64,000 nt of DNA from Alphaproteobacteria bacterium (GCA_965237415.1 CBDEFM010000002.1:1920001-1984000), one strand, 5' to 3'. Counted from the first letter of the stretch, positions 25,680 to 53,128 are shown. A program made the numbers and translations. Notes: generated by a model not told the origin, from the letters alone.

Positions 25680-26984
25680 ATGCAGACCCAGTTCTCCGAG
25701 AGCCAGCTGGCGCACCCGGCGCTGGCCCAGGCCAACGAGGTGCTCCGCACCTGCGTCCATTGCGGGCTTTGCCTCTCCACCTGCCCCACCTATGCGCTGC
25801 TCGGCGACGAGCGGGACAGCCCGCGCGGGCGCATCTACCTGATCAAGGACATGCTGGAGCAGGACGCGCCGGCGGACGCCACGGTGACCCGTCACATCGA
25901 CCGCTGCCTCTCCTGCCTCTCCTGCATGACGACCTGCCCGGCGGGCGTCGATTACATGCACCTGGTCGATCACGCGCGCGGCCACATCGAACGAACTTGG
26001 GAACGCCCGCCCGCCGAGCGCGCGCTGCGCACGTTGCTCAGCACCATATTGCCGCGCCCGGGCCTCGCGCGCCTCGCGCTCATGGCTGCGCGCGGTCCGT
26101 CCCTGTTGGCGCCGCTCTTCGGCGGGCGCATCGGTGCGCTGTTGCGCCTCGCGGGCCGCCCGTCCTATGGGCCGAGCTGGGTCGAGCGGCCGCAGGTGAT
26201 CGCCGCCCAGGGCCGGCGCCGCAAGCGTGTGGCGCTGCTCATGGGCTGCGTGCAGTGCACCCTCGCGCCCGAAATCAACGAGGCGGCGGTCCGCGTGCTC
26301 ACCCGCCACGGCTGCGAGGTCGTGGTGCCGCGCGGTGCCGGCTGCTGCGGCGCGCTCTCGCACCACCTGGGCGACGAAGCGCGCGGCCGGGCCCAAGCCG
26401 GGCGCACGGCAGCCGCATTCGCGCGGGAGGCCGCTGAAGGCGGGCTCGACGCGGTCGTCGCCACGGCATCCGGCTGCGGGACGATGCTCAAGGACTACGG
26501 CCATCTGCTGAAGGACGACGGGGCCCATGCCGCCGACGGAGCACAGGTGGCGGCGCTTGCCCGCGATATCAGCGAGGTGCTCGACGAGCTTGGCCTCACG
26601 TGCGACGGGCGAGCGCCCACGAGTGCGCCCGTCGCCTATCATTCGGCCTGCTCGCTACAGCACGGTCAGCGGATCGACCGCCAGCCGAGGGCGCTCCTCG
26701 CGGCCGCCGGCTTCACCGTGCGAACGGTCCCGGATGGACATTTCTGCTGCGGCTCGGCGGGAACTTATAATATTCTTCAGCCGGACCTCGCCGGGGCACT
26801 CGGCGCGCGCAAGGCGGCGGCGATCGAGAGCACCGGTGCCGCGTTCGTGGCCGCCGGTAACATCGGCTGCATGGTGCAGATCGCCAGCCACACCGCGCTG
26901 CCGGTGGTGCACACGGTCGAGCTCCTCGACTGGGCGACCGGCGGGCCGTGTCCTTCGGCGCTGCAACAGACGGCCGCAGCGTAA
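25680..26984 (+). CDS. glcF: Glycolate oxidase iron-sulfur subunit GlcF
   Basis: CVHCGLCLSTCP, CLSCLSCMTTCP, two CCG domains. Confidence 0.94.
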   Translation: MQTQFSESQLAHPALAQANEVLRTCVHCGLCLSTCPTYALLGDERDSPRGRIYLIKDMLEQDAPADATVTRHIDRCLSCLSCMTTCPAGVDYMHLVDHARGHIERTWERPPAERALRTLLSTILPRPGLARLALMAARGPSLLAPLFGGRIGALLRLAGRPSYGPSWVERPQVIAAQGRRRKRVALLMGCVQCTLAPEINEAAVRVLTRHGCEVVVPRGAGCCGALSHHLGDEARGRAQAGRTAAAFAREAAEGGLDAVVATASGCGTMLKDYGHLLKDDGAHAADGAQVAALARDISEVLDELGLTCDGRAPTSAPVAYHSACSLQHGQRIDRQPRALLAAAGFTVRTVPDGHFCCGSAGTYNILQPDLAGALGARKAAAIESTGAAFVAAGNIGCMVQIASHTALPVVHTVELLDWATGGPCPSALQQTAAA

Positions 26985-27067
26985 CGCCACCGGGCAGGAA
27001 CTGACGCTGGGGAGAGCGACATCGGGTCGAGCCTTCGTTCGGATCGCCCGATGCCAGGCAGGACACT

Positions 27068-27406
27068 ATGGACGTGACGACGGAACGAGAGGACGGCGTG
27101 CTGTCGGTGCAGGTGGAGGGGCGCATCGATGGCTCCACCGTGCTCGCGTTCCACGAGGCGATCGAGACCGCGCTTAAGGACGGCGACCACGCCGTGATCG
27201 TGGACTGCGAGAGGCTGAGTTACATCGGCAGCGCGGGTCTTCGCACCATGCTTTCGATCGCCAAGGCCGTTTCCAACCGCGATGCACACTTTGCGCTCTG
27301 CGCGCTTTCGGATCCGGTGCTGAAGATCTTCGAGAAGAGCGGCTTCGATACGATCATCACGATCCGCCCGTCACGAACCGAGGCGCTCGCCGCGATCGCC
27401 GACTAA
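27068..27406 (+). CDS. STAS-domain anti-sigma-factor antagonist
   Basis: 112 aa, GRID, LSYIGSAGLR (phosphoacceptor Ser motif), IFEKSGFD. Confidence 0.9.
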   Translation: MDVTTEREDGVLSVQVEGRIDGSTVLAFHEAIETALKDGDHAVIVDCERLSYIGSAGLRTMLSIAKAVSNRDAHFALCALSDPVLKIFEKSGFDTIITIRPSRTEALAAIAD

Positions 27407-27455
27407 ACCGAGCCGCTCCGAGCGGCGCGGTCGAACCGGGCCGGCGCGAGGGCAA

Positions 27456-28400
27456 TCACAGCCCGATTGCTTTCTGCGCCTCCTCGGTGAGCGCGATGCC
27501 CGCGTTTGCCGTGGCATCCGCCAGCACATCGATCCACTGCTGGCCATGGGCGGCGACGCGATGAGTGAGGCCGATCCGCCGCGAGGGCTCGGGCGCGGCA
27601 AAGCGAAGGAAGCTCAGGCCGGGAACGATTGCGCGTTCGGTAAGCGCGGCCGTTTCGGGCAGGAGCGTCAGTCCCGCGCCGCTTGCGACAAGCCTCGACA
27701 ACGTGGCGAGCGACTCTGCACCGCGGCGCACCTCCCGCGTGCGCCACATCAAGGAGGCGCCGAGAACCTGGTCGGCCAGACAATGGCCGTCGCCGAGCGT
27801 AAGGAGCGGCCCGATATCCGCCCGTGCCAGATCCGACGGACGCAGGTCATCGCCGAGTGTGCGGCGGATCGAAGCAAGGCGCTCGGTTCGGCCGGCGAGC
27901 ACAAGGCGTTCCTCGAAGAGCTCGCGTTCGGGCAGCTCCAGCAGCCCCAGCGGGAGCGAGACGACCGCCGCGTCGAGACGGCCGGCAAGCAGGCTGGACA
28001 CGAGGTCCTGCCCCGGCGCCTCCAGGATGTCGAGCTCGATACGGGGCGAGGCGTCGTGCAAATTTTTCAGCAGTCCCGAGATCAGGTAAGGCGCGAGCGT
28101 AGAGACGATCCCGACGGAGACCCTGAGGGGGCCCGTCTCGAATCTCTGGCCCAGGTTCTGGAGGAGCAGTGTTTCGTCCAGGATCCGAAGGGTCTGCTCA
28201 TGCGCTTCCCGGCCGAGCGGCGTGAGCAGAATGCCGCGGCTCTCCCGCTCCACCAGAGGCCCGCCGAGAGAGGACTCGAGTTCGCGGATCTGGAGCGAGA
28301 GCGCAGGCTGCGAAACGTGAACGCTCTCGGCCGCCCGGCTGAAGGAGCCATGTTCGATCAACGCCTGGAAGTAGCGCAGCTGACGCAATGTGACCGGCAT
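27456..28400 (-). CDS. LysR-family regulator, OxyR-like
   Basis: TLRQLRYF..SFSRAAE...VSQPALSLQIRELE; STLAPYL, DGHCLADQ, ESLATL, GLTLLP, PEPSRRIGL. Confidence 0.88.
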   Translation of the reverse strand: MPVTLRQLRYFQALIEHGSFSRAAESVHVSQPALSLQIRELESSLGGPLVERESRGILLTPLGREAHEQTLRILDETLLLQNLGQRFETGPLRVSVGIVSTLAPYLISGLLKNLHDASPRIELDILEAPGQDLVSSLLAGRLDAAVVSLPLGLLELPERELFEERLVLAGRTERLASIRRTLGDDLRPSDLARADIGPLLTLGDGHCLADQVLGASLMWRTREVRRGAESLATLSRLVASGAGLTLLPETAALTERAIVPGLSFLRFAAPEPSRRIGLTHRVAAHGQQWIDVLADATANAGIALTEEAQKAIGL

Positions 28401-28661
28401 GTCCTGTCCCCATGGGCGCGACCGCAGCGAGGGAAGCGATCCAGGCCCAGCGTGAGCGAGAGAGTGCCCCGGCAACGGGGCCATCAGATGGAACGTGAGA
28501 CCACCTCGAAGGCCGGGCCTAGACCGATCCGGCGCTGCGGTCCTCAACCGCGCGAGCCCGGCTGAGGTTGGGAAGCGAGGGCTGCCTCAGAGGGCAGTGC
28601 CCCTGCCTCGGGGCGACACGGCGAACGGCGGGTTCGACAAACGGAGAACGAATCTCCTGGC

Positions 28662-28913
28662 CTATGCCGCCGTAGCTGCTGCGACCGGGCCGCTACGATG
28701 CCCCACGCGGCCCGGTTCGGTATGCCGCGGTGAGAACCGTCTCGCCGACGATACCCTCCGCCTCGGCTGCGTCCGTTTCCCGGATCGCGATCCTGCCTGC
28801 TCGTCGATAGTCCCTATACTGCCGACGATCCCTTCCGTCTCGGCGTCGTCGATCGCCTAAGCCTTCTCGTCGGACTTGTCGCCCTTGCCGGGCGCCGTCT
28901 CCCTCTCATCCAT
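28662..28913 (-). pseudogene. Possible degraded small-peptide gene with repeated D-x-A-E-x-E-G-I-V-G motif
   Basis: Strong SD GGGAGG 8 nt before ATG 28913; MDERETAPGKGDKSDEKA-TAG-AIDDAETEGIVGS...; second motif copy 77 nt away in another frame. Confidence 0.35.
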
Positions 28914-29113
28914 CGTGCTTTCCTCCCTTCGTGACGAGTTTTATTCTTGGCCTTGGGTGACACCGGACAATGCGTCTTCGGTCACCCCCACTCTTTGTTA
29001 AGCTTGCATCTTTGTGATGGTATGCCAAAAGAATTACCGCTACCGAATCCTGTGTTCTTCGATAAGTTGAACTTATACGGCTCATCCCCGCAGGGCGGCG
29101 GGCATGCGCGCAA

Positions 29114-31099
29114 TCATGCGGAGACACCATCGTCCGCCTTGCCATCGTAGCGCAGCACGACGCATGTGATGTCGTCCGACTGCTCTGCCTCGCCAACGAA
29201 CTTTACCACCGCACTGGTCACGTTCGTGAGCACGACGTCGACAGGCAGGTCGTGGCCATCTGCGAGAACTTCCTCCAGACGCGCCTCGGTGAACTCCTCG
29301 TTGTCCACGTTCATGGCTTCGGTGATGCCGTCCGTGTAGAGGAACATCGTGTCTCCCGGAGCCATCGTCACCGCGTCTTCGTTGTAGGGCAATCCGGGCA
29401 TGACGCCGACGGCCATGCCCCCGGTCATCGGCAGCGGCGCGACCTCGCCGGGGCGCCGGACCACGAACGGGGGGTTGTGCCCGGCGTTGGCATAGATGAA
29501 CTCGCCAGAGTCGGGGTCCAGGATGCCGTAGAACAGCGTCACGAACAGGTCTTGAGGGTTCTGCTCGCAGATGGCGTCGTTGACCTCTTGCAGGCAGGGG
29601 CCCGGGGTGGGATGCCGGGCTGCGGCGGCGCGCATCACGGTCCGCGCAATCGCCATAAAGAACGCCGCCGGCACGCCCTTGCCGGAGACATCTGCCATGA
29701 CCACGCTCAGGCGGCCGTCGCCCAAAGTGAAGAAGTCGTAGAAGTCGCCGCCCATCTCGCGCGCGGGAGTCATGAGCGCGTGCCCCGAATAGGTCGGATT
29801 TTCCGGCATCGTCTTGGGCAAGATCGCTCCCTGCAGGGCATGCGCGATCTTGAGCTCGGACTCCATGCGCTCTTTTGCCCGTTCGAGCTGCGCGTTCGAT
29901 GCCTCCAGGTCCCGCGTGCGTGCGCGCACCATGCTTTCCAGATATTCCTCGCGCGCCTGGACCTGGCGCACCATGTTCTGGAACACGCGGACCAGCGTGC
30001 CGAGCTCGTCGCGCCGGGCGGCCACGGTGTCGAGAGTCTCCGGGGCGAAGCTCAGCGTGTCGGTGTCCACTTCCGCTGCCGCCGCGGTCAACGCCGTGAC
30101 CGGCTGCACGATGCGCCGCGCGGACAGTGCTGCAATGACGGAACCGATGGCGAAGGCCGCCGCCGCGACAATCAGTCCATACTTGATGTGATCCGCGAAC
30201 AACTGATCCAGGTGATCGCGCTGCATGTGAATAACGGCAGCGCCCGTGGCGACGCCGCCGCGGTCGAGAATCGGCGCGGCCACATGGAGGGCGCTGTCGC
30301 CGAGATAGGACATGGCGCCGTCCACACCCAGTGCACGCGTGGCAAGCTCTTCGTCTTCGGTTGAGAGCGTCGCGTCCGACATGGGCACGCCCTTGCTCTC
30401 AAATGCGGCCATGCCGATCAAATCGAGCAGGTCGTTGACCACCCAGATCGCCCGGATGGCCTCGCGCCCGGCCAGCGAGTCCAGCGCGGCTTCGATACCG
30501 ATGATTTCGCCCGGACCGCCGGTCTTGGCTGCCAGCGTGCCGACCAGCACGGATTCGTGGCTGCCGGCGCGAACGCCCACATACCGGATGGGCTTTTCCC
30601 ACCCCTTTGGCGGGATCGACTGGAAGGAAATGGAGAAGCGGCGGCCGGAGACCAGCGCCTCCACGACTCGGGAATCGATACCGGCGGACGCCAGATCCGA
30701 GGGGTCGCCCTCGCTCAGGCCGTCGACGGCACGCACCAGCGGCTCACCGCCTTCGCCCAGCAGCCAGATGTCATCGACGGAGCTATCCGCCGTCAGTCGC
30801 GCGAAATAGGCCCCGAGAGCGTCGTCGCCTCCCTCCTCGTGCTCGTGATTTTCGAGGTGGCTGGCGATCGCCAGCGCCTGTGCCTCCATCTGACTGATGA
30901 TCATGCGGTCGATCGCGTCGGCGGTGAGTTCGGCCCGGTTGGCTTCGCTCGCGATAAGCCCGGCAACGAGCCGCGCCTGGTCTTCGGCCTGCTCGATCAG
31001 CGCGTCGCGCGCGAGATAGCCCATCGCCAAGGCGACCCCCGCGATTGCCACGCCGACGCACGCGGCAACCGTGATGATCAGGCGTCGAGAGAGGGTCAA
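29114..31099 (-). CDS. Membrane-bound HAMP + PP2C/SpoIIE (RsbU-like) serine phosphatase
   Basis: TM1, large extracytoplasmic region, TM2, HAMP (PVTALT..RRDELGTL..FQNM), coiled coil, GGDFYDF, ADVSGKG, YTDGITEA, QSDDIT. Confidence 0.93.
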   Translation of the reverse strand: MTLSRRLIITVAACVGVAIAGVALAMGYLARDALIEQAEDQARLVAGLIASEANRAELTADAIDRMIISQMEAQALAIASHLENHEHEEGGDDALGAYFARLTADSSVDDIWLLGEGGEPLVRAVDGLSEGDPSDLASAGIDSRVVEALVSGRRFSISFQSIPPKGWEKPIRYVGVRAGSHESVLVGTLAAKTGGPGEIIGIEAALDSLAGREAIRAIWVVNDLLDLIGMAAFESKGVPMSDATLSTEDEELATRALGVDGAMSYLGDSALHVAAPILDRGGVATGAAVIHMQRDHLDQLFADHIKYGLIVAAAAFAIGSVIAALSARRIVQPVTALTAAAAEVDTDTLSFAPETLDTVAARRDELGTLVRVFQNMVRQVQAREEYLESMVRARTRDLEASNAQLERAKERMESELKIAHALQGAILPKTMPENPTYSGHALMTPAREMGGDFYDFFTLGDGRLSVVMADVSGKGVPAAFFMAIARTVMRAAAARHPTPGPCLQEVNDAICEQNPQDLFVTLFYGILDPDSGEFIYANAGHNPPFVVRRPGEVAPLPMTGGMAVGVMPGLPYNEDAVTMAPGDTMFLYTDGITEAMNVDNEEFTEARLEEVLADGHDLPVDVVLTNVTSAVVKFVGEAEQSDDITCVVLRYDGKADDGVSA

Positions 31100-31154
31100 C
31101 GGCGGCGTCCCGCAATGCTGTACGCCCGATGCCAGAGCCGGGCGCGGGGCGCTG

Positions 31155-31832
31155 TCACGGCAGCGGGCCCCCGGTGAGGTCGGTGGTCTCCTCCAGCGGC
31201 CGGTGCACGCGCCGCTTGATGTGGCTGCTGAGCCTGTTCATGCCGAACGTCAATAGGAGGCTGAACCCGATGAACCAGATCATAGCCCAGAGATAGACCC
31301 AGAGCGCGAGCCCGATCTTGTCGACGGCGCCGATGACCGTATCCGCCCGGCGCACGAGTTCCGGCACACCGATCACCGAGGCGGTGCTGGAGGCCATGAC
31401 GATGATGAGGAAATAGCTGGTCCAGGCCGGCACGAAGAGCAGCGCCTCCGCCATTTCGTGGCGTCGCAAGTGCCGGATCGCGACGAGCGCGTTGTCGGAC
31501 ACATAGCCGGCGACGGCGATTCCCAGCGCGAGCGACGCCTTGATCCATGCCGGGAACGTCGCGGAGGCGCCGAAGAGCGTGATTTCGGTGGGGATGATGT
31601 AGGCCAGATAGAACAGCATGACGAACGTCGGCGCATTGCGCGCCAGTGTCGTCAGCCCGCTGCCGCCATGCCGCGCGCCCCAGTTGGAACCTTCCCGCAG
31701 CGAGGCAAGCGCTAGCCCGACGATCGTCCCGATCGCCATGGCGAGCAGGGAGACGATGATGTTCCAGCCGAATCCCTCCGCCAGATAGGGCGACCAGACC
31801 CAGAGGACGTCGATGGTCTCACGCGCCGTCAT
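31155..31832 (-). CDS. Polar amino acid ABC-type membrane domain (HisM/Q-like, divergent)
   Basis: PYLAEGF..IIVSLLAM.IG...G, RNAPTFVMLF, SSTASVIGVPEL; EAA loop not recognisable. Confidence 0.8.
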   Translation of the reverse strand: MTARETIDVLWVWSPYLAEGFGWNIIVSLLAMAIGTIVGLALASLREGSNWGARHGGSGLTTLARNAPTFVMLFYLAYIIPTEITLFGASATFPAWIKASLALGIAVAGYVSDNALVAIRHLRRHEMAEALLFVPAWTSYFLIIVMASSTASVIGVPELVRRADTVIGAVDKIGLALWVYLWAMIWFIGFSLLLTFGMNRLSSHIKRRVHRPLEETTDLTGGPLP

Positions 31833-33430
31833 GGTCGCGAGGCCCTGCTCTTCTCAAACCGCCGGAAGAGCTGCACCGTGATGATGACCAGGACGAAGTA
31901 GCAGATCAGAAGCAGATTCATCATCACGTCGGCATTGCCCTTTTCCGCCACGATCGAGGTGCTGGCGTGAACGAGCTCCGGCAGGGCGAGCGTGCTGGCC
32001 ATGCCGGTGGCTTTCACGATGTTGGCGGAATTGCCCATGATCGCGGCGTAGCAGAGCGAGAACGCCCGGTGCAGATCGCGCGGCGTGAGTCGTAGCCGGT
32101 GTCCGCCCGAGGCGGCGACATCCGCAGCCAGCGAAAACGCGATCGCATTGCTGGACGCCGCGTAGAGCGACAGAACCACGGCGGCGACCAGGAAGGCGTC
32201 GAGCGTGAATCCAAGCGAAAGCAGCACACCGCCCAGGCCGAAGAACACGATGTAGAGTTGAAGCAGCGGGGGAGTCATGCGCAGGAACTCGCTGAACCCC
32301 CGCAGGAAGTGGCTGACTCCCGGCACCCGGCGGTGCATCAGCCAGCCGAAGAGCACCCCCAGAAAGATGCTGCCGACAACCGTGATGACCGAGAGCAACG
32401 CGGTCAGGGCCAAGCCATAAAGGAAAACGTCTCGGTCGATCGGGTCGTACAGGATGCTGATGTCGAGACCCGTTACCTCCATGATTGTCAGCGAGAAGCC
32501 CGACAGGCCGCCGATGCCGCTGCCGGTGACGAGTGCGACCTCCCGGCATTCCAGAGGCCACTGGCCCTGCTCGCCGCGCCGGCACTTCAGTTCGCCGGTC
32601 TCGTCGACCTCCTGCCAGGTCGTGCGTGCATTCCGCAGGAAGGGAGAGGGCGGCAAGCCCCATTTCTGTTCCAGCGATTGCAGGAAGCCGTCGCGATGCC
32701 ACTGCGCCAGGGTATCGCCCATCAGCTGATCGAGCCGGCCGCCGCCTTCCTCCTTGGCAATAGCGACGGCCCAGGGCAGCACGAAGCGCGTCGGCAGCGT
32801 GACGCTGAATCCGTCCCACTCGCCCGTCTCCAGTTCGTGCAGAAGGAGGACCTCGTCGTAGATCCAGCCGACGCAATGTTCGTTGCGCAACGCCTGGCCG
32901 GCCTCGCGGGTGCTGTTGAACGAGGTCACGCCGAGCAGCAGCCGCTGTTTGGCGAGCCGGTTCCACAATGAGCCCTGAAGGCCGCAGACGGTCTGACCGC
33001 GCAGTTCGGCCCAGGTGCCGATCCTGGCGTTGTCCCGCAGCAGCACATTGGCGCCGTCGCCGTAATATTGCGGCTCGATCATGCTGACCAGCTCGCGGCG
33101 GCTGCGGGTATCGCCCATGGTGGCGGCGACAATGTCGATCTCGCCGCGCCCCACCTTTTGCAAGCGGTTGGCGCTGGTCACCGGCACCAGCTGGACCTCG
33201 ACGCCGATCGCGTCTGCAAAGCCGCGTGCAACGTCCACATCGTAGCCGGCCAGCATGCCCTCGGAATCGCGGAAGCCGAAGGGCGAGTAGTCCTCCTTGA
33301 CGCCGACGATCACGTGTCCGCGGTCCTGGATCTCCTGCAGCCGGTCGGCAAGTGCTGGACAGGCTAAGCCGGCCCAGGCGACGAGAACGGCGGCGCACAG
33401 CAGGCGCCAAGGCGGAAATCGCCGTCTCAT
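31829..33430 (-). CDS. Fused amino-acid substrate-binding domain + ABC-type membrane domain
   Basis: Signal peptide, VGVKEDYSPFGF, GYDVD, VTSANRL, then membrane domain GLALTALLS..RMTPPLLQLYIVFFG..KATGMASTLALPEL. Confidence 0.85.
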   Translation of the reverse strand: MRRRFPPWRLLCAAVLVAWAGLACPALADRLQEIQDRGHVIVGVKEDYSPFGFRDSEGMLAGYDVDVARGFADAIGVEVQLVPVTSANRLQKVGRGEIDIVAATMGDTRSRRELVSMIEPQYYGDGANVLLRDNARIGTWAELRGQTVCGLQGSLWNRLAKQRLLLGVTSFNSTREAGQALRNEHCVGWIYDEVLLLHELETGEWDGFSVTLPTRFVLPWAVAIAKEEGGGRLDQLMGDTLAQWHRDGFLQSLEQKWGLPPSPFLRNARTTWQEVDETGELKCRRGEQGQWPLECREVALVTGSGIGGLSGFSLTIMEVTGLDISILYDPIDRDVFLYGLALTALLSVITVVGSIFLGVLFGWLMHRRVPGVSHFLRGFSEFLRMTPPLLQLYIVFFGLGGVLLSLGFTLDAFLVAAVVLSLYAASSNAIAFSLAADVAASGGHRLRLTPRDLHRAFSLCYAAIMGNSANIVKATGMASTLALPELVHASTSIVAEKGNADVMMNLLLICYFVLVIITVQLFRRFEKSRASRP

Positions 33431-33892
33431 GCTTCTAGCCGCCTGCGCAACACGGTGGGCGCGGAGACCGCAAGGTCCATAGCGCGGCCGCCGCCCTCGG
33501 CTGCCTCCCGGTAAGAAGGAGAGGCCGGGTCGCGTTTGCGCATCAATCCGTCCGCGCCGCGGCGGAATCGGCCATGGAGGCCCGGCAAAAAGCCGCGACC
33601 GCAGCGCATCGGGTGTCGATGATCGTCGCGTAAATCATCGTAGCCACTCTACTTGACGCAAGCCGGAAAGAGGGATCAGCGGGAAAGAATGCTGGCCCTA
33701 CCGGCCGTTGCCGCAGTGCCGCCGGCCGCAGCAGCGAAGAACCCTATCCGATATGGCCAAGGGACGAAATAGAGTATCGTGCCGCGCCTAGAGAACCAAT
33801 GTCTGCCGCCGCCCCATACGCGTCCGTGCTGCAGGGGGCCGGCGCACCCGTGTCAAAGCCCGCGGGATGGGCGGCACACCGTCGGGGGAAGA

Positions 33893-34837
33893 ATGACCGG
33901 CTTCAGTCATCGTCTGCACCTCGCTGTGCCGCGACGTTGGGCGCTGCTCCGGTATGCGGGCGCGGTTCTTGCGTTTGTCTTGTTGGCGTCGGGGCTGCCG
34001 CGCCTAGCACCCCCAGCGCAGGCCGCCGCCGACGGCGTGCTTGCCAAGATAGAGGCCGGCGGTGTGATTCGCGCCGGCACCAGGGCGAGCGCACCGCCCT
34101 TCGCCCGGAAGCTGGAGACGGGAGGATTCGAGGGTTTCTCGGTCGACTTGCTGGAGGCGGTCCGGGCCGCTGCGGAGGAGAAGGTCGGCCGACCGGTCAC
34201 GCTGGAAATTCATGAGGTTACGCCGGCGGACCGGCTGGATCGAGTCGCTGCGGGCGAGCTCGACATCGTGTGCGGCATCACCACGCCGACCTGGGATCGG
34301 GAGGCGCTGGTCGATTTCTCCGTGCCGTTCTTTCGCGACGGCACCCGTATCCTGATCTATCGGGAGCAAGCCACAGGCGGCGTGGATCTCGGCAGGCTCG
34401 ACATCGGCGTGGTCGAAGGCACGACCACCGTGACGATCATCGGCGAAGAGCTGCCCACGGCCAATCTGCGTCTCTATCCCACCATGAACGATGCCATGGC
34501 AGCGCTCGCTGCGTCCGAAGTGCACGGTGTCGCCAACATCGGCATTACGCTGCTGGGGCTCGCGGCACGGGCGGAGCCGCGCCGCAGCGTGGTGTTACTC
34601 CCGCGCACCTACGCGCTCGCCATTGAAACGCTGGCCTGCGTCCTGCCGCAGGACGACAGCCCCTGGCGCGATACCGTCAATCGGGTCATCGTCGACATGT
34701 TTACCGGAGTGGAAGACTCCAACAGCCGTTACGACGAGATCTACGATCGGTGGTTCGGGCGCCACAGCGAGATCTTCTATCCGCTCGACCGCGACAACCG
34801 GACCTATCTGAGCACCGTATCGATCTGGGCGCGGTGA
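33893..34837 (+). CDS. Amino acid ABC substrate-binding protein (GltI-like family 3)
   Basis: Signal peptide, AGTRASAPPF, GFSVDL, GELDIVCGITT.TWDRE..VDFS.PFF, EGTTT, IYDRWF. Confidence 0.88.
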   Translation: MTGFSHRLHLAVPRRWALLRYAGAVLAFVLLASGLPRLAPPAQAAADGVLAKIEAGGVIRAGTRASAPPFARKLETGGFEGFSVDLLEAVRAAAEEKVGRPVTLEIHEVTPADRLDRVAAGELDIVCGITTPTWDREALVDFSVPFFRDGTRILIYREQATGGVDLGRLDIGVVEGTTTVTIIGEELPTANLRLYPTMNDAMAALAASEVHGVANIGITLLGLAARAEPRRSVVLLPRTYALAIETLACVLPQDDSPWRDTVNRVIVDMFTGVEDSNSRYDEIYDRWFGRHSEIFYPLDRDNRTYLSTVSIWAR

Positions 34838-34907
34838 CGCACCGGCGCGCCGGTGACGCACGGGCAGTGAGCGCAAAGCCCATACCAGAGAACGCTCAGC
34901 AAGAGCG

Positions 34908-34924
34908 ATGATATAGTGTAACCT
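34908..34924. promoter_or_regulatory. Putative Zur box
   Basis: ATGATATA-G-TGTAACCT resembles the palindrome ATGTTATA-N-TATAACAT; 44 nt upstream of zur-znuCB. Confidence 0.6.
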
Positions 34925-34968
34925 GTTGCGGTTGCCGCACCGCAGCACGCGGCGAAATTGAGGAACGA

Positions 34969-35475
34969 ATGAACGGCCAGCACGTCGACCGGCCCGCCTT
35001 CCATGACGGCGGGCACGAACACCAGGGCTGTATCGCCGACGCGCTCACTCGTGCCGAGGCCGTGTGCCGCCAGCGCGGCGCCCGGCTCACGCCGTTGCGG
35101 CGCAAGGTGCTGGAGCTGGTCTGGGGGAGCCATCGGGCGACCAAGGCCTACGACCTGCTCGCCGCGCTCGGCGATGAAGACGGCGCGGCGAAGCCGCCGA
35201 CGGTCTACCGCACCCTGGAGTTTCTCATGGACCAGGGCCTGGTCCACCGCATCGACAGCCTCAACGCCTTCGTCGGCTGCCCGACGCCCGACCGTCGCCA
35301 CACTGCACAGTTTCTCATTTGCGGCGGTTGCGGCGAGGTGTCGGAGATGGCTGCGTCGAGCATCGACCGCGCGGTCGCGGACCAAGCAGCCGGCTCCGGC
35401 TTCGCGCTCTCGCGTCAGATCATCGAGCTGCACGGCAAATGTCCGCACTGCGCGGCGCTGCCGCAGAGCCCCTGA
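34969..35475 (+). CDS. zur: Zinc uptake regulator (Fur family)
   Basis: RLTPLRRKVLEL, KAYDLL, PPTVYRTLEFL..GLVHRIDSLNAFVGC, CxxC...CxxC; precedes znuCB. Confidence 0.9.
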   Translation: MNGQHVDRPAFHDGGHEHQGCIADALTRAEAVCRQRGARLTPLRRKVLELVWGSHRATKAYDLLAALGDEDGAAKPPTVYRTLEFLMDQGLVHRIDSLNAFVGCPTPDRRHTAQFLICGGCGEVSEMAASSIDRAVADQAAGSGFALSRQIIELHGKCPHCAALPQSP

Positions 35476-36278
35476 GTCGCCGGCCGGCCGCCGCCGGGCC
35501 GCCGCTCGCCTCGGGCCGCGACCTGGTGGTGCGCTATCGCGGCCGCACGGTGCTGGACCGGGTCTCGATCGAGGTCCACCGCCGGGAGGTGGTGAGCCTG
35601 ATCGGGCCCAACGGGGCCGGCAAGACCACCGCCGTGCGCGCGCTGCTCGGCCTGATCAAGCCGGATGCGGGAGTCGTCCATCGCGAGCCCGGCGTCGTGG
35701 TCGGCTATGTTCCTCAGCGCATTGAGCCGGAGTCGCTCCTGCCGCTCACCGTGCGCCGGTTCCTGGCGATGGCAGGGCGGCGGACCCGTGCCGACGTTGC
35801 CGCGGCACTGGAGGAGGTGGGAGCGGCGGCGTTGATCGACCGCCAGCTGAGCAGCCTTTCCGGCGGTGAGTACAGGCGCGTCCTGCTCGCCCGGGCCCTG
35901 CTGCGCAATCCTGACCTGCTGGTGCTCGACGAACCTGTCCAGCAGGTGGACTTCGCTGGCCAGATGGCCATGCACCAATTGATCGCCCACCTGCGCAATC
36001 GGCGCGGATGCGGTGTGCTGGTCATCTCCCACGACCTTCACCTTGTATTGGGCGCGACCGACCGCGTGGTGTGCATCAATGGGCATGTCTGCTGTGCCGG
36101 CGAGCCGGAGGCGGTGAGCCGCCATCCCGAATACATCTCGCTGTTCGGCCCCCATGCGGCCACCGCGCTCGCGGTCTACACCCACGACCACGACCACAGC
36201 CACGGCCTGCCCGCCGCTGTGACGCCGGTCGACGCAGACTCGCCCGACGCGGGATCGCCGCCCGCCGGGTCTGGCTGA
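35439..36278 (+). CDS. znuC: Zinc ABC transporter ATPase (start uncertain)
   Basis: GPNGAGKT, GYVPQ, LSGGE, LVLDEP, SHDLHLV, HVCC, His-rich tail. Confidence 0.9.
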   Translation: MSALRGAAAEPLSRRPAAAGPPLASGRDLVVRYRGRTVLDRVSIEVHRREVVSLIGPNGAGKTTAVRALLGLIKPDAGVVHREPGVVVGYVPQRIEPESLLPLTVRRFLAMAGRRTRADVAAALEEVGAAALIDRQLSSLSGGEYRRVLLARALLRNPDLLVLDEPVQQVDFAGQMAMHQLIAHLRNRRGCGVLVISHDLHLVLGATDRVVCINGHVCCAGEPEAVSRHPEYISLFGPHAATALAVYTHDHDHSHGLPAAVTPVDADSPDAGSPPAGSG

Positions 36279-43883: not shown

Positions 43884-44699
43884 CTATTCGTACAGCAAAC
43901 AGGCGACCCGATGGTTGCCGCCCACGTCCATCAGCGGCGGCTCGCGCTCCGAGCAGACGGGCATCCGCTTCGGACAACGTGTGTGGAAATGGCACCCCTT
44001 GGACGGATCGATGGGGCTCGGCACGTCGCCCTCGATAGCGCCCTGACCCGCAATGTGCCGCTCGGTCGGCTCGGCCGAGGGAATGGATTCGAGCAGGGCC
44101 TGGGTGTAGGGGTGCAGCGGCTCATCGTAGAGGCGCTCGCTCTCCGCCAACTCCACGATCCTGCCGAGATACATCACGGCGGTCCGGTCGCAGACCCGCT
44201 TCACGACGCTGAGGTCGTGCGAGATGAAGATGTAGGTGAGCTGGTAGTCCTGCTGGAGCTCCAGCAGGAGCTGCAGGATCTGAGCACGGATCGACACATC
44301 GAGAGCGGAGACCGGCTCGTCGAAGATGATGAGCTTGGGGCGGAGGTGCAGCGCGCGGGCGATGGCGACGCGCTGGCACTGGCCGCCCGAGAACTCGTGA
44401 GGATAGCGGTCGTAGTCGGCCGCGCGCAGACCCACGACCTCCAAGAGCTCGCTGGCCTGCTGGATCCGTTCCAGGCGGTTGCCGATGCCGTGGTAGTAGA
44501 GCTGGATCGCGATATTCTCGCCCACCGTCATGCGCGGATTGAGTGAGGAGAGCGGGTCCTGAAAGACGATCTGCATCTCGCGCCTGAGCCGCCTCAGGTC
44601 GCCGCCCGAAGAGCCCAGAACGTCGACCCCGTCGAGCGTGACGCTGCCGCTGGTGGGCTCGATCAGACGCAAGATCAGCCGTGCCGTGGTGGACTTGCC
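43884..44699 (-). pseudogene. 5'-truncated oligopeptide ABC ATPase (OppF-like)
   Basis: Starts mid-Walker A (GKSTTAR), fused directly to SBP sequence; rest intact (YPHEFSGGQCQR, DEPVSALD). Confidence 0.85.
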
Positions 44700-45730
44700 G
44701 GCGAGAGCATGCCGTACTCGGCCCGGCCCGTGCCGGCGAAGATCTCCCGCACCAGACTCTCGCGGTCGATGGCCATGTTCATGGCGCGGCGTACGCGCAC
44801 GTCCTGCAGGATCGGGTGCCTGTTGTTCAGATGAATGAACCAGATGAAGGGCACGTTCTCATTGATGGTGAGATGGAAGCCCTCATCGACCAGGTCCTGA
44901 ATGTCGTCCCAGGGCGGCGTGTTGGTCATGTCGATCTCGCCCGTGCGCAGCGCGTTAATGCGCGTCGCGGGGTCCTCGAGCGGGCGGAAAATAACCCGGT
45001 CGAGCTTCGCCTTGCGGCCCCAATAGTCCGGGTTGCGCTCGATGACCGTCTTCACGCCCTGCTCGCGCTCGACGAACTTGAAGGGCCCGGTGCCGATCGG
45101 GTTCAGCGCAACGCCTTCGTTCCCGAACGTCTCGACCGCAGTCGGGCTGATCATGAGCGGCTGGCCGTAGCTCTGGAGCCCCGAGCGGATCCATTCATAG
45201 TTGGGGGCGTTGAGCGTGACCTTGATCGTCATGTCGTCGATCGCTTCGACGTTCTCGATCCAGCGTGTGTAGGCGGCGACGAAGGCCTTCGACTTTGCGT
45301 AGAAGTGCGGCGAGGCTTCGTTCCAGAAGCGGTCGAAGTTGAACTTGGCTACGGCCGCATCGAACGGCGTGCCGTCGTGGAACTTGACGCCCTCGCGCAG
45401 GTAGAACGTGTATTCGAGACCGTCTTCCGAGATTTCCCAGCTCGTTGCGAGCGCCGGGATGAGCTCGGGCGTCGCTGCGTTAGGATCGGTCAGGTCTTCT
45501 TTCGCGAAGCTCTCGAATATCTGATACGTCACGTCGTAGGTGAGCCTCCCGCCGGTGGCGTGCGGGTCGAGGATGTCGGTCTCCGCAGGCATGCCCCAGA
45601 CCAGCGTGCCCTCGCCGCCCTCGGCGGCGGCGTCCTGGGCGGTGCCGACCAGCGCCACGGCACCCGCAATCGCAAGCGATGCCAGAGGAGGCCCCAAACC
45701 GCCGCAGTGCCCGTTGGCTGTTCCGGTCTG
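44700..45730 (-). pseudogene. 3'-truncated peptide ABC substrate-binding protein (family 5)
   Basis: Signal-like N-terminus, PALATSWEIS.DGLEYTFYLREGVKFHDGTPF, PIGTGPFKF, VRRAMNMAIDR; ends after EYGMLSP; 5' boundary approximate. Confidence 0.85.
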
Positions 45731-45850
45731 GCTCGCTCCGGGGCGTCGTCGTGATAGGCGTGATATGGTGGGGAAGCGTGCGCCGCGCCGTGCAAGCGGG
45801 CGATATCTTTGGGCGCTCGACACGTTGCTGAACGCTGAGAGGACGAATCG

Positions 45851-46519
45851 ATGGAACTGTACGAGGCCATGCGCACGACATTCGCCTGCCGCGACTTTAC
45901 CGACGATCACCTGCCTGACGAGGTGATCTACGAGATGATCGAGAACGCCCGCTTTTCGCCGAGCGGGGGCAACCGTCAGGGCAACCGGGTCATCATCGTG
46001 CGCGACATGGCGACCAGGCAGCAGCTCTCCGACCTGACGGTGCCGGTGGCGAAGCGCTATCGCGCCCAGATGGACGCCGGCGAGAGTCCCTGGAACGCCT
46101 ACGTTCCGACCAAGCTCACGCCTGAGCAGATCGAGGCGACTCCGGCGCCGGCCATGCTGACCGAGCCGCTACTCAAGTCCTCCGTCGTGCTCGTCGTCTG
46201 CGTCGACCTCAAGGTCGTCGCCGCGACCGACCAGTATCTGGACCGCGTGGGTGTGATCGGCGGGGCCTCGATCTATCCCTTCGCCTGGAGCCTGCTGCTG
46301 GCGGCCCGGCAGAACGGGTTCGCCGGCACCATCACGACGCTCCCCATCGCCCACGAGCCCGAGATCAAGACGCTGCTCAACATCCCGGACGATCACGCGG
46401 TCTGCGCGGTCATGCCCTTCGGGCGCCCGGTCAAGCAGCTCACCAAGCTGAAGCGCCGCCCGGTGGAGGAGATCGCAACGCGCGAGCGCTTCGACGGCGA
46501 CGTCTTCGCGCAGGGCTGA
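45851..46519 (+). CDS. Nitroreductase family protein
   Basis: MELYEAMRTT..CR.F, FSPSGGNRQ, ASIYP, LLLAAR..G. Confidence 0.9.
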   Translation: MELYEAMRTTFACRDFTDDHLPDEVIYEMIENARFSPSGGNRQGNRVIIVRDMATRQQLSDLTVPVAKRYRAQMDAGESPWNAYVPTKLTPEQIEATPAPAMLTEPLLKSSVVLVVCVDLKVVAATDQYLDRVGVIGGASIYPFAWSLLLAARQNGFAGTITTLPIAHEPEIKTLLNIPDDHAVCAVMPFGRPVKQLTKLKRRPVEEIATRERFDGDVFAQG

Positions 46520-52012: not shown

Positions 52013-53128
52013 ATGACCCAGGATGCCCCGGATATTGTGGTGTTCGACCGCGTGCAGAAAAGCTACGACGGGGAGACACTGGTCGTCAAGGACCTCAATT
52101 TAGGTATCAAGGCGGGCGAATTTCTGACGATGCTGGGCCCCTCCGGGTCGGGAAAGACGACTTGTTTGATGATGTTGGCTGGTTTCGAGCCAGCGACGCA
52201 TGGCGAAATTTACTTGAACGACAGGCCGATAAACAAGGTCGCCCCACATCGGCGCAATATCGGCATGGTATTTCAGGACTATGCTCTGTTCCCGCACATG
52301 ACGGTGAATGAGAACCTGGCGTTTCCCTTGAAGGTTCGGAAGATCCGCAAGTCGGAGGTCGAGGCAAGAGTTAAGCGCGCGCTCGACATGGTTCGGTTGC
52401 AGGAATTCGGCAATCGACGACCGGCTCAATTGTCCGGCGGTCAGCAGCAACGGGTGGCGGTTGCTCGGGCGCTGGTGTTCGAGCCCGACCTGGTGCTCAT
52501 GGATGAACCTCTCGGCGCCTTGGACAAGAATTTGCGTGAGGAGATGCAGTACGAAATCAAGCATCTTCATGAGGAACTCGGCGTAACGGTGGTCTACGTC
52601 ACCCACGATCAGTCCGAAGCCTTAACCATGTCCAACCGGATTGCCGTCTTCAATGATGGGGTGATTCAGCAATTGGCAAGTCCCAGCGCGCTGTACGAAC
52701 AGCCGGAGAATGCCTTTGTTGCGCAGTTTATTGGCGAGAACAATCGCTTATGTGGCAGAGTTAAGTCCGTCGAGGGGCAGCATTGCCACGTGGATTTAGA
52801 TGGCGGCGGCACGATTCGAGCCCTTAATGTGAGGGTCGAAGGCATGGGCGCGCGGACGACGCTCTCCCTGCGCCCTGAACGCGTCATCATCGCGTGCCAG
52901 GAAGGGGAAGTGGAAAACAGGCTCGTCGGTCGCGTCGAGGAGTTGATCTATTTGGGAGACCATATCCGCGCGCGCTTGTCTGTCGCGGGAACCGAAGAAT
53001 TCGTCGTGAAGATTCCGAATACGGACCGCAATGCTGCGCTGCACGAGGGCATGGACGTGAACCTGGGCTGGGCCGCCGAGGATTGCCGGGCGTTGGACGC
53101 GCCGGCCGAGGTGGTCGGTTCCGATTAG
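52013..53128 (+). CDS. Polyamine-type ABC transporter ATPase (PotA-like)
   Basis: GPSGSGKT, FQDYALFPHM, LSGGQQQR, DEPLGALD, TOBE domain. Confidence 0.92.
   Translation: MTQDAPDIVVFDRVQKSYDGETLVVKDLNLGIKAGEFLTMLGPSGSGKTTCLMMLAGFEPATHGEIYLNDRPINKVAPHRRNIGMVFQDYALFPHMTVNENLAFPLKVRKIRKSEVEARVKRALDMVRLQEFGNRRPAQLSGGQQQRVAVARALVFEPDLVLMDEPLGALDKNLREEMQYEIKHLHEELGVTVVYVTHDQSEALTMSNRIAVFNDGVIQQLASPSALYEQPENAFVAQFIGENNRLCGRVKSVEGQHCHVDLDGGGTIRALNVRVEGMGARTTLSLRPERVIIACQEGEVENRLVGRVEELIYLGDHIRARLSVAGTEEFVVKIPNTDRNAALHEGMDVNLGWAAEDCRALDAPAEVVGSD

Follow-up and report, generated by a model that had tools for sequence, protein, structure and literature searches.

ABC-importer membrane domains lacking the ATPase-docking loop, linked to a PP2C phosphatase: a probable transporter-derived receptor in Proteobacteria

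ATP-binding cassette (ABC) importers are textbook pumps, and their membrane domains are thought to be useless without the ATPase. What, then, is the role of a permease pair that stands beside a membrane phosphatase and has no ATPase gene? The question is raised by positions 29,114 to 34,837 of a 64,000-nucleotide (nt) stretch of DNA from an Alphaproteobacteria bacterium (GCA_965237415.1, CBDEFM010000002.1:1920001-1984000), the whole of which is called the window here. The locus encodes a substrate-binding protein (SBP) fused to a transmembrane domain (SBP1-TMD1), a second permease (TMD2), a phosphatase of the PP2C type and a free binding protein (SBP2). TMD1 and TMD2 are genuine ABC-importer membrane domains minus the ATPase-docking loop. 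SBP1-TMD1 and TMD2 probably form a heterodimer that derives from a type I importer of the polar amino acid transport (PAAT) family, no longer docks an ATPase and serves as receptor or co-receptor for the phosphatase. The former pump is most likely a signal receptor now.

29114-31099, minus strand: phosphatase, 661 amino acids (aa), with SpoIIE (8.9e-53) and HAMP matches
31155-31832, minus strand: TMD2, the second permease, an open reading frame (ORF) of 225 aa
31428-31505, minus strand: connection between transmembrane (TM) helices TM3 and TM4 of TMD2, YVSDNALVAIRHLRRHEMAEALLFVP, where a 20-residue deletion takes out the coupling helix
31829-33430, minus strand: SBP1-TMD1 fusion, 533 aa, with SBP_bac_3 at residues 40-258
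32081-32170, minus strand: cytoplasmic TM3-TM4 loop of TMD1, SLYAASSNAIAFSLAADVAASGGHRLRLTP, about 10 residues short and with EAA---G gone
33779-34837, plus strand: SBP2, a free divergent family-3 binding protein (SBP_bac_3, 7e-21)

The four-gene layout given by the first-pass annotation of this DNA, with its overlap and 55-nt gap, was recovered, the ORFs lying at the coordinates it gave, and the two loop strings it quoted are exact translations of 31428-31505 and 32081-32170 on the minus strand. The stop of the fusion gene and the start of TMD2 share an ATGA, and the 55-nt spacer separates TMD2 from the phosphatase gene, which starts with TTG; the product begins MTLSRRL, an N-terminus common to the homologues. 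A terminator scan revealed no terminator-like site in this gap or elsewhere between the genes. No promoter was found in a scan of the locus, and a scan of 26500-35500 against Rfam gave no family match. The fusion protein consists of a signal peptide, the family-3 binding domain (residues 40-258; SBP_bac_3 at 3.2e-25 in the Pfam search), a linker containing Cys and a 5-TM permease domain (about 296-533).

The ancestry of the permease domains was approached with profiles and models. PF00528 matched neither TMD1 nor TMD2 even at E=10, while it does match the pot permeases of the window, and a precomputed PF00528 or other Pfam permease domain was found in none of the 120 that were listed out of 303 TMD2 relatives. 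With TIGR01726 (HEQRo_perm_3TM; cut-off 42.2 bits), hmmscan gave 40.7 bits for TMD2 and 40.3 bits for the other TMD, and a six-frame genome search gave 43.1 and 45.2 bits for the two, so that both lie right at the cut-off of this PAAT N-terminal signature. An AlphaFold2 model of TMD2 (53 homologues; pLDDT 84.3) retrieved ArtQ chains 4yms_D and 4yms_C as the top Foldseek matches (E 2.7e-06 and 1.1e-05, TM-scores 0.66-0.69), with MetI next. The fold of TMD1 was judged by a profile search, which matched ArtQ 4yms_D at 1.5e-07. As modelled, the overall fold of TMD2 is still ArtQ-like, with the 5-TM core of a type I importer.

The loop between TM3 and TM4 was compared across related loci. A scan of one genome per species gave 128 loci encoding the module, of which the best 80 were fetched, and their six-frame ORFs were searched with the window's own domains. 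Between two flanking motifs, the TMD2 connection has exactly 20 residues in 80/80 loci versus 40 in 5/5 relatives that are canonical or intermediate (see below). In the TMD2 model, TM3 (helix 95-123) is joined to TM4 (helix 133-150) with only a 4-residue helix, 127-130, between them. The loop of TMD1 measures 39-50 residues (mode 46) in the loci versus 56 in canonical relatives; when TMD1 is aligned to ArtQ with HMMER, the 10-residue gap falls on the EAA stretch, and the EAA---G motif is absent. The canonical PAAT TMDs of the same genome all (5/5) keep the loop E..RG....V..GQ.EAA.ALG......R.I.LPQ, whereas TMD1 and TMD2 do not. Thus, throughout the family the coupling helix is missing from TMD2 and degenerate in TMD1. 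A shortened loop without EAA---G had been claimed for both TMDs at first pass, and this stands, with the qualification that the two losses differ in size: 20 residues in TMD2 and only about 10 in TMD1 (46 versus 56), where the motif has been rewritten. The accompanying claim that the pot permeases keep the loop is correct as to a full-length AA--LG, though R takes the place of E (RAAASLGSSP, RAARSLGASP). The flanking motifs RxxP and ...S.(I/L)(G/A)(V/L)PEL are retained in both TMDs; flanking HisM motifs had also been reported earlier. Among 53 TMD2 sequences, 31 columns are invariant.

The genes that accompany the permease pair were then counted in the same 80 loci.

80/80 loci: SBP-TMD1 fusion immediately before TMD2
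73/80 loci: phosphatase with the same N-domain after TMD2, on the same strand
72/80 loci: SBP2 orthologue, divergent and upstream in 53, between TMD2 and the phosphatase in 19
47/80 loci: STAS gene in the flanks
31/80 loci: HATPase_c_2 kinase in the flanks
52/80 loci: no ABC ATPase match within the fetched flanks (about 8 kb)

The linkage to PP2C is thus conserved, and it goes as far as in-frame fusion. TMD2 and the phosphatase form one open frame in 12/80 loci, and TMD2 and the HATPase_c_2 kinase in 6/80; Pfam confirms the TMD2-kinase fusion at L061, and Pfam confirmation was obtained for P0155 as well. Longer TMD2 relatives include 24 clusters (about 855 aa) with HAMP and SpoIIE domains after TMD2, and P0146 (509 aa; source name Ectothiorhodospiraceae bacterium), in which a TMD2-like domain is joined to STAS and cNMP_binding. 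The topology of the PP2C fusions fits, by inference from the ArtQ fold, since an ArtQ-type domain ends in the cytoplasm and the phosphatase would lead out through TM1 to its periplasmic domain and back through TM2 to HAMP. Carriers of the locus occur among the Alpha-, Beta- and Gammaproteobacteria (Rhodospirillales, Defluviicoccus, Zavarzinia, Kaistia, Bosea, Mesorhizobium, Aquamicrobium, Azospirillum, Geminicoccus, Accumulibacter, Competibacteraceae); cultivable ones include Zavarzinia aquatilis, Kaistia soli, Aquamicrobium and Azospirillum rugosum, and two modules are found in one assembly in the pairs L021 with L030 and L063 with L070. The protein collection holds 303 TMD2 relatives, and the TMD2 profile gave 55 matches (50%-identity clusters) at E<=1e-30 among 1.84 billion cluster representatives.

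Seven of the 80 loci are without the phosphatase: one contig ends early, and six loci, nested in the short-loop clade, have a non-PP2C gene after TMD2. This gene encodes a methyl-accepting chemotaxis protein at L045:3709-5232 and a protein of about 1000 aa with Peripla_BP_6 and an MscS-type part at L054:8658-11669 and L060:8698-11643. At L044:4777-6447 and L052:8662-10449 it encodes a conserved protein of 556-595 aa, 73% identical between the two, for which no Pfam match was obtained even at E 0.1. At L055, TMD2 is followed by an opposite-strand ORF without clear family. These exchanges of the downstream gene favour a portable input module.

Two further features of these loci were noted. Other TMD2-like fusions (P0233, P0236 and P0292, 645-657 aa; P0154, 484 aa) carry an NMT1_3-type binding domain or have SBP_bac_3 downstream. 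A methyltransferase gene lies upstream in L045, L052, L055 and L060.

No ABC ATPase gene lies within the cluster, and the ABC_tran genes of the 64-kb window are all assigned to other systems.

35319-36278: ZnuC-like ATPase gene, beside an ABC-3 permease (ZnuB) and a Fur-family gene
43884-44672: oligopeptide-type ATPase piece with an ABC_tran match
52013-53128: PotA-like ATPase gene with its own binding protein and permeases

Homologues standing beside a cognate ATPase were looked for and never seen, an adjacent ABC ATPase being present in 0/80 loci; the closest ATPase match in any of them is 2.7 kb from TMD2. The neighbour ATPases inspected in five loci (L037, L045, L047, L061, L062) all belong to other families, and those of L037, L047 and L061 accompany their own permeases. 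As the missing partner each was rejected: the ATPase at L061 is of the MalK type with two BPD_transp_1 permeases, that at L037 is PotA-type with its own SBP and permease, that at L047 comes with SBP_bac_8 and a double permease, that at L045 is oligopeptide-type, and at L062 two halves of a CUT2/RbsA-like tandem ATPase are present. The family assignment covers these five loci; further ATPase matches, 3.0-7.2 kb off, occur in L016, L035, L038, L053, L064, L066, L071, L074 and L078.

Relatives that have kept the ATPase were recovered from 401 sampled genomes of the class. Seven of these genomes matched the TMD2 profile strongly and others more weakly, and the profile of the phosphatase N-domain reached E<=1e-65 in exactly those seven genomes and in 0/394 others. 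Ten of the weaker matches were fetched, and all (10/10) proved to be ordinary operons, in the order binding protein, TMD, TMD and GlnQ-like ATPase, the last directly after TMD2; the loops of these canonical relatives are full-length. Two of the seven genomes, G178 and G315, represent one family of an intermediate kind. Their SBP2, SBP-TMD1 and TMD2 genes encode full-length loops, and an operon of STAS, dCache-PP2C, ABC ATPase and HATPase_c_2 kinase genes lies nearby (G315, L097:2413-11018; G178, L089/L098). The ATPase is of the polar-amino-acid type. It shares 49% identity with a canonical GlnQ-like protein, and the solved structures that match it best are ATPases from amino-acid ABC transporters, ArtP and the 4YMS ATPase chain among them. 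With this ATPase inside the PP2C operon, the G178/G315 system resembles a genuine co-sensing transporter. Full-length loops are accompanied by an ATPase; shortened loops are not. Since the intermediate has intact loops and its ATPase in the PP2C operon, the link to partner-switching genes is older than the loss of the ATPase.

A remote ATPase was sought in the genome of the window, which holds at least 150 ABC_tran matches. Three ATPases are of the GlnQ type, each beside canonical PAAT permeases, and no orphan GlnQ-type ATPase was found. The best genome matches to the ATPase of the intermediate lineage are the same three, at just 40-42% identity, so that none is closely orthologous to it. Because all three are already partnered and the docking loops are deleted, a remote energiser is unlikely, though possible.

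A maximum-likelihood tree was made from 44 TMD2 sequences; its root is unknown, and long branches meet at the node joining the groups. All short-loop TMD2 (32/32) lie on one side of a branch with support 100/99, the ten canonical TMD2 form a 100/100 group, and the two intermediates attach between. These sequences suggest a single origin of the short-loop TMD2. One member, in the L037 module of an Anaerolineae bacterium metagenome-assembled genome, is 56% identical to the TMD2 of the window and groups with the Rhodospirillaceae locus L046 at 100/97, probably through mis-binning or lateral transfer.

The phosphatase has been described from the first pass as a TM-HAMP-PP2C protein. These domains are present, and the description had left out a periplasmic domain of the protein's own. 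The layout is TM1, a dCache-like domain of roughly 280 residues (about 30-300), TM2, HAMP (326-381) and SpoIIE/PP2C (461-651; PF07228 at 8.9e-53 and 179.5 bits against a cut-off of 25). The translation contains the stretches GGDFYD, DVSGKG, TDG and DD.T, which we take to be the motifs of the PPM type. A Pfam search of residues 1-310 gave no match. A model of the N-domain from 25 orthologues (pLDDT 86.8) consists of a long helix (H3-84) followed by two alpha/beta modules, and Foldseek related it to the dCache ligand-binding domains of TlpQ (6fu4, 3.1e-08), a Vibrio histidine kinase, DctB, KinD, Tlp3 and PctA; E values ranged from 3e-08 to 1e-05 and the probability was 1.00 for TlpQ, DctB, KinD, Tlp3 and PctA, with modest TM-scores of 0.3-0.48. 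Since the phosphatase has this sensor of its own, the TMD pair need not be the sole input. SiaA is the best NCBIfam match of the protein; as a SiaA orthologue it was rejected (NF038263, 109.4 bits against a cut-off of 700, residues 314-651 only). No SpoIIE-type gene other than this one was found in the genome.

Two genes lie beyond the 3' end of the phosphatase gene.

27068-27406, plus strand: STAS gene of the anti-sigma-antagonist type (STAS 3.5e-20; TIGR00377 78.7 bits)
27456-28547, on the strand of the phosphatase: LysR-type regulator gene, 566 nt downstream of the phosphatase and before the STAS gene

The STAS gene sits 1.7 kb past the phosphatase 3' end. Its TIGR00377 score exceeds the cut-off of 53.45, and the protein contains GSAGL, presumably the phosphorylation motif at its usual position. 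The protein is a candidate by proximity and the likely substrate of the phosphatase. The genome also has three small STAS proteins and, outside the window, two HATPase_c_2 kinases that stand alone. One of the two, encoded near C2:1289100, shares 52% identity with the locus-linked kinase of the relatives and is most likely the cognate one. A second stand-alone STAS gene directly follows an ammonium-transporter gene (C2 about 566767-568660; L083:1767-3660), and at L016:10973-13128 another such transporter gene is found 0.9 kb past the PP2C gene of the module, with a GPP34-family gene in between; these neighbours may hint at a nitrogen-related output.

SBP2 begins with a signal or anchor segment and is transcribed divergently; its true start may be the ATG near 33890. 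Residues invariant across the loci include C85, T89, T91, R94, T137 and N173, and SBP1 also has invariant pocket-like residues. An assignment of SBP2 as GrrP was rejected (TIGR04262, 127 bits, below the cut-off of 190). At the 3' end of the gene (window position 34832), contigs from two RNA-library runs (X2, X4) are without 19 bases, which looks like strain variation that would change the C-terminus.

In pairwise comparisons with five close relatives, TMD2, the fusion and the phosphatase all have dN/dS values of 0.12-0.20. Four metatranscriptome runs, all from one study, yielded contigs that cover the locus with 98-99% identity; the gap between TMD2 and the phosphatase is bridged in three runs, and the junction of the fusion with TMD2 likewise in three. 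The module is probably expressed, and the TMD2 and phosphatase genes may be co-transcribed.

These results bear on the proposal, made at first pass, of a transporter-derived sensor. The findings named beforehand as contrary to it, namely an intact coupling helix, homologues beside a cognate ATPase, want of a conserved linkage with PP2C and a remote ATPase, were each looked for and none was obtained, so the proposal is supported. Since neither a coupling helix nor a cognate ATPase was found, the module is not an ABC importer in the functional sense. As to mechanism, ligand-loaded SBP1 (tethered), SBP2 (free) or both would dock on the periplasmic face of the TMD pair. The conformational change, which in a pump is sent to the ATPase through the coupling helices, would here be handed on inside the membrane to the TM and HAMP segments of the phosphatase; in the fused forms a direct path would lead from TM5 of TMD2 into TM1 of the phosphatase. 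The PP2C activity would be set by this change. A STAS protein, the nearest candidate being that at 27068-27406, would be dephosphorylated by PP2C and would then sequester a HATPase_c_2 kinase of the RsbW/SiaB type. The relay of ligand binding by the SBPs, and its direction from the TMDs to the phosphatase, are steps that we infer. A complex prediction for TMD1, TMD2 and phosphatase residues 1-390 (25-row alignments) gave no answer (score 0.00) and neither supports nor opposes binding.

Several points weigh against a receptor role. In the unfused forms, contact between the TMD pair and the phosphatase is hypothetical. The phosphatase could respond to ligands on its own through the dCache domain predicted for it. 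Where TMD2 is fused to kinase, STAS or cNMP-binding domains, signalling proteins that regulate a TMD pore are an equally good fit. The loss of the loop did not create the signalling link, which is already present in the intermediate lineage. The STAS protein is assigned to the phosphatase by nearness of its gene, and no HATPase_c_2 kinase gene was found in the 64-kb window. With so many ABC_tran matches in the genome, some remote ATPase might dock by an unorthodox route. The RNA evidence consists of contigs from one study in which DNA carry-over is possible, without a silent-region control.

The main rival explanation reverses the flow. Without using ATP, the TMD pair would serve as a facilitator or channel for an amino-acid-like solute delivered by the SBPs, and the dCache-PP2C, kinase and STAS proteins would gate or regulate it. 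Such control is exerted on SulP transporters by C-terminal STAS domains and on channels by cNMP-binding domains, and here the cytoplasmic C-terminus of TMD2 is fused to the kinase in 6/80 loci and to STAS and cNMP_binding in one protein. The phosphatase also carries its own dCache input domain, and the invariant pocket-like residues in both SBPs argue that ligand binding is still needed. However, we know of no type I importer TMDs that translocate substrate without ATPase-driven alternating access; PP2C is swapped in the six nested loci, in three of them for a chemoreceptor or a protein combining a periplasmic binding protein with MscS, which is better explained by a shared input module; and in the window the module is not linked to genes that would metabolise an imported substrate. 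A gated pore is thus rather unlikely. It is quite unlikely that dCache is the real sensor and that the TMD pair and SBPs only scaffold, localise or stabilise the phosphatase and kinase at the membrane. Domains of the dCache fold commonly serve as ligand-binding inputs, and fusions show co-assembly, not signalling; a pure scaffold would, however, need no binding proteins, so the retention of two, with invariant pocket residues, speaks against this role, as do a gene order conserved over three proteobacterial classes and periplasmic and membrane cores of the TMDs that are as conserved as the phosphatase by dN/dS.

An ordinary importer whose ATPase is shared from elsewhere, with the phosphatase adjacent by chance or for co-regulation, is very improbable. 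Shared ATPases occur in other ABC families, and the genome, with its at least 150 ABC_tran matches, would offer candidates; yet both docking loops are deleted or rewritten family-wide, the ATPase is adjacent in 10/10 canonical relatives and in 0/80 short-loop loci, the three GlnQ-type ATPases of the genome each have TMDs of their own, and in-frame fusions with PP2C and kinase exclude chance neighbourhood. That the locus is a functionless, decaying remnant of a transporter is scarcely credible. The lost Pfam recognisability and the missing ATPase could be read in this way, but dN/dS of 0.12-0.20, the 31 invariant columns among 53 TMD2 and the intact frames oppose it, and the family is kept from Alpha- to Gammaproteobacteria, with RNA-library contigs across the locus.

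The receptor reading was set beside known systems. PAAT importers such as Art(QN)2 of Thermoanaerobacter (4YMS), HisQMP2 and GlnPQ are alike in their family-3 SBPs and two 5-TM permeases of the ArtQ fold, and GlnP also in a binding domain fused N-terminally to the permease domain. They differ in having an ATPase gene and the EAA coupling helix, whereas here TMD2 is 20 aa and TMD1 about 10 aa shorter and signalling partners are present. On the output side, SiaA/SiaB/SiaC of Pseudomonas aeruginosa form a partner-switching module with a membrane PP2C (bioRxiv 10.1101/674879 = PMC7647112). As in Sia and RsbU/RsbV/RsbW, a HAMP-PP2C phosphatase, a STAS substrate and a HATPase_c_2 kinase are found together in many of the related loci. 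The difference lies in the dCache N-domain and the obligatory SBP and TMD companions, which belong here and, to our knowledge, are not part of the described Sia or Rsb systems.

PstSCAB-PhoU-PhoR, UhpC-UhpB and yeast Ssy1, Snf3 and Rgt2 are transporter co-sensors or transporter-like sensors, in which, as proposed here, a transporter or its homologue gives input to a signalling protein. BceAB-BceS is a further co-sensor (PMC3023708). In Bce and Pst a complete transporter, driven by its own ATPase, does the signalling, a feature absent here and apparently present in G178/G315. UhpC, Ssy1 and Snf3 are homologues of secondary carriers, whereas these are ABC-importer TMDs stripped of ATPase coupling, and the output here is a PP2C partner switch, not a histidine kinase. 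SBPs are also described as stimulating chemoreceptors, sensor kinases, cyclases and Ser/Thr kinases (PMC8050422). Periplasmic binding proteins capture the ligand for signalling in both cases; in those receptors, however, the SBP docks on the periplasmic domain of the receptor, whereas here the permease pair is kept between the SBPs and the output protein. A term look-up in that review gave no occurrence of 'SpoIIE', 'PP2C' or 'partner-switching'. A full-text literature search, with subscription journals and supplements outside its scope, turned up no account in which an ABC permease pair without ATPase is linked to PP2C. The module would belong among the transporter-like sensors and co-sensors, as an apparently undescribed variant.

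A wider reading, possible and put forward tentatively, is that living genomes preserve a series. It would run from the canonical PAAT importer through a co-sensing importer with its ATPase in a STAS-PP2C-kinase operon to a form in which a single 20-residue deletion and loss of the ATPase left a portable, ATP-independent input module of SBPs and permease pair, plugged into a PP2C switch; nested lineages appear to connect it to a chemoreceptor and to a channel protein of the MscS type as well. The cytoplasmic face vacated by the ATPase may now be filled by the kinase or STAS protein, and the module would be the first receptor class made from ABC-importer membrane domains.

A small, widespread family has thus done away with the ATPase and its docking helix while purifying selection and hard-wired signalling partners are retained. 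If the receptor reading is true, it would be an ABC-derived addition to the short list of transporter-like receptors; it would explain how input can reach Gram-negative partner-switching systems, for most of which the signal is unknown; and the canonical, intermediate and ATPase-less forms would offer a natural series for studying how conformational coupling was re-routed in ABC importers. Where the sources name these genes, the name is 'ABC transporter permease', 'polar amino acid transport system permease' or 'hypothetical protein', and a look-up in the Atlas returned only clusters that are unnamed or called 'ABC transporter permease subunit', with no common Pfam. Annotation of the transporter type would mislead metabolic reconstructions.

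A minor observation concerns the oligopeptide-type genes at 43884-45910 of the window. The ATPase ORF (262 aa) matches ABC_tran from profile position 33 on, with the Walker A region outside the ORF, and in the SBP_bac_5 ORF next to it the match stops at profile position 253 of 368. Truncation or a frameshift in opp/dpp genes may be the cause, or the ORF limits may be wrong.

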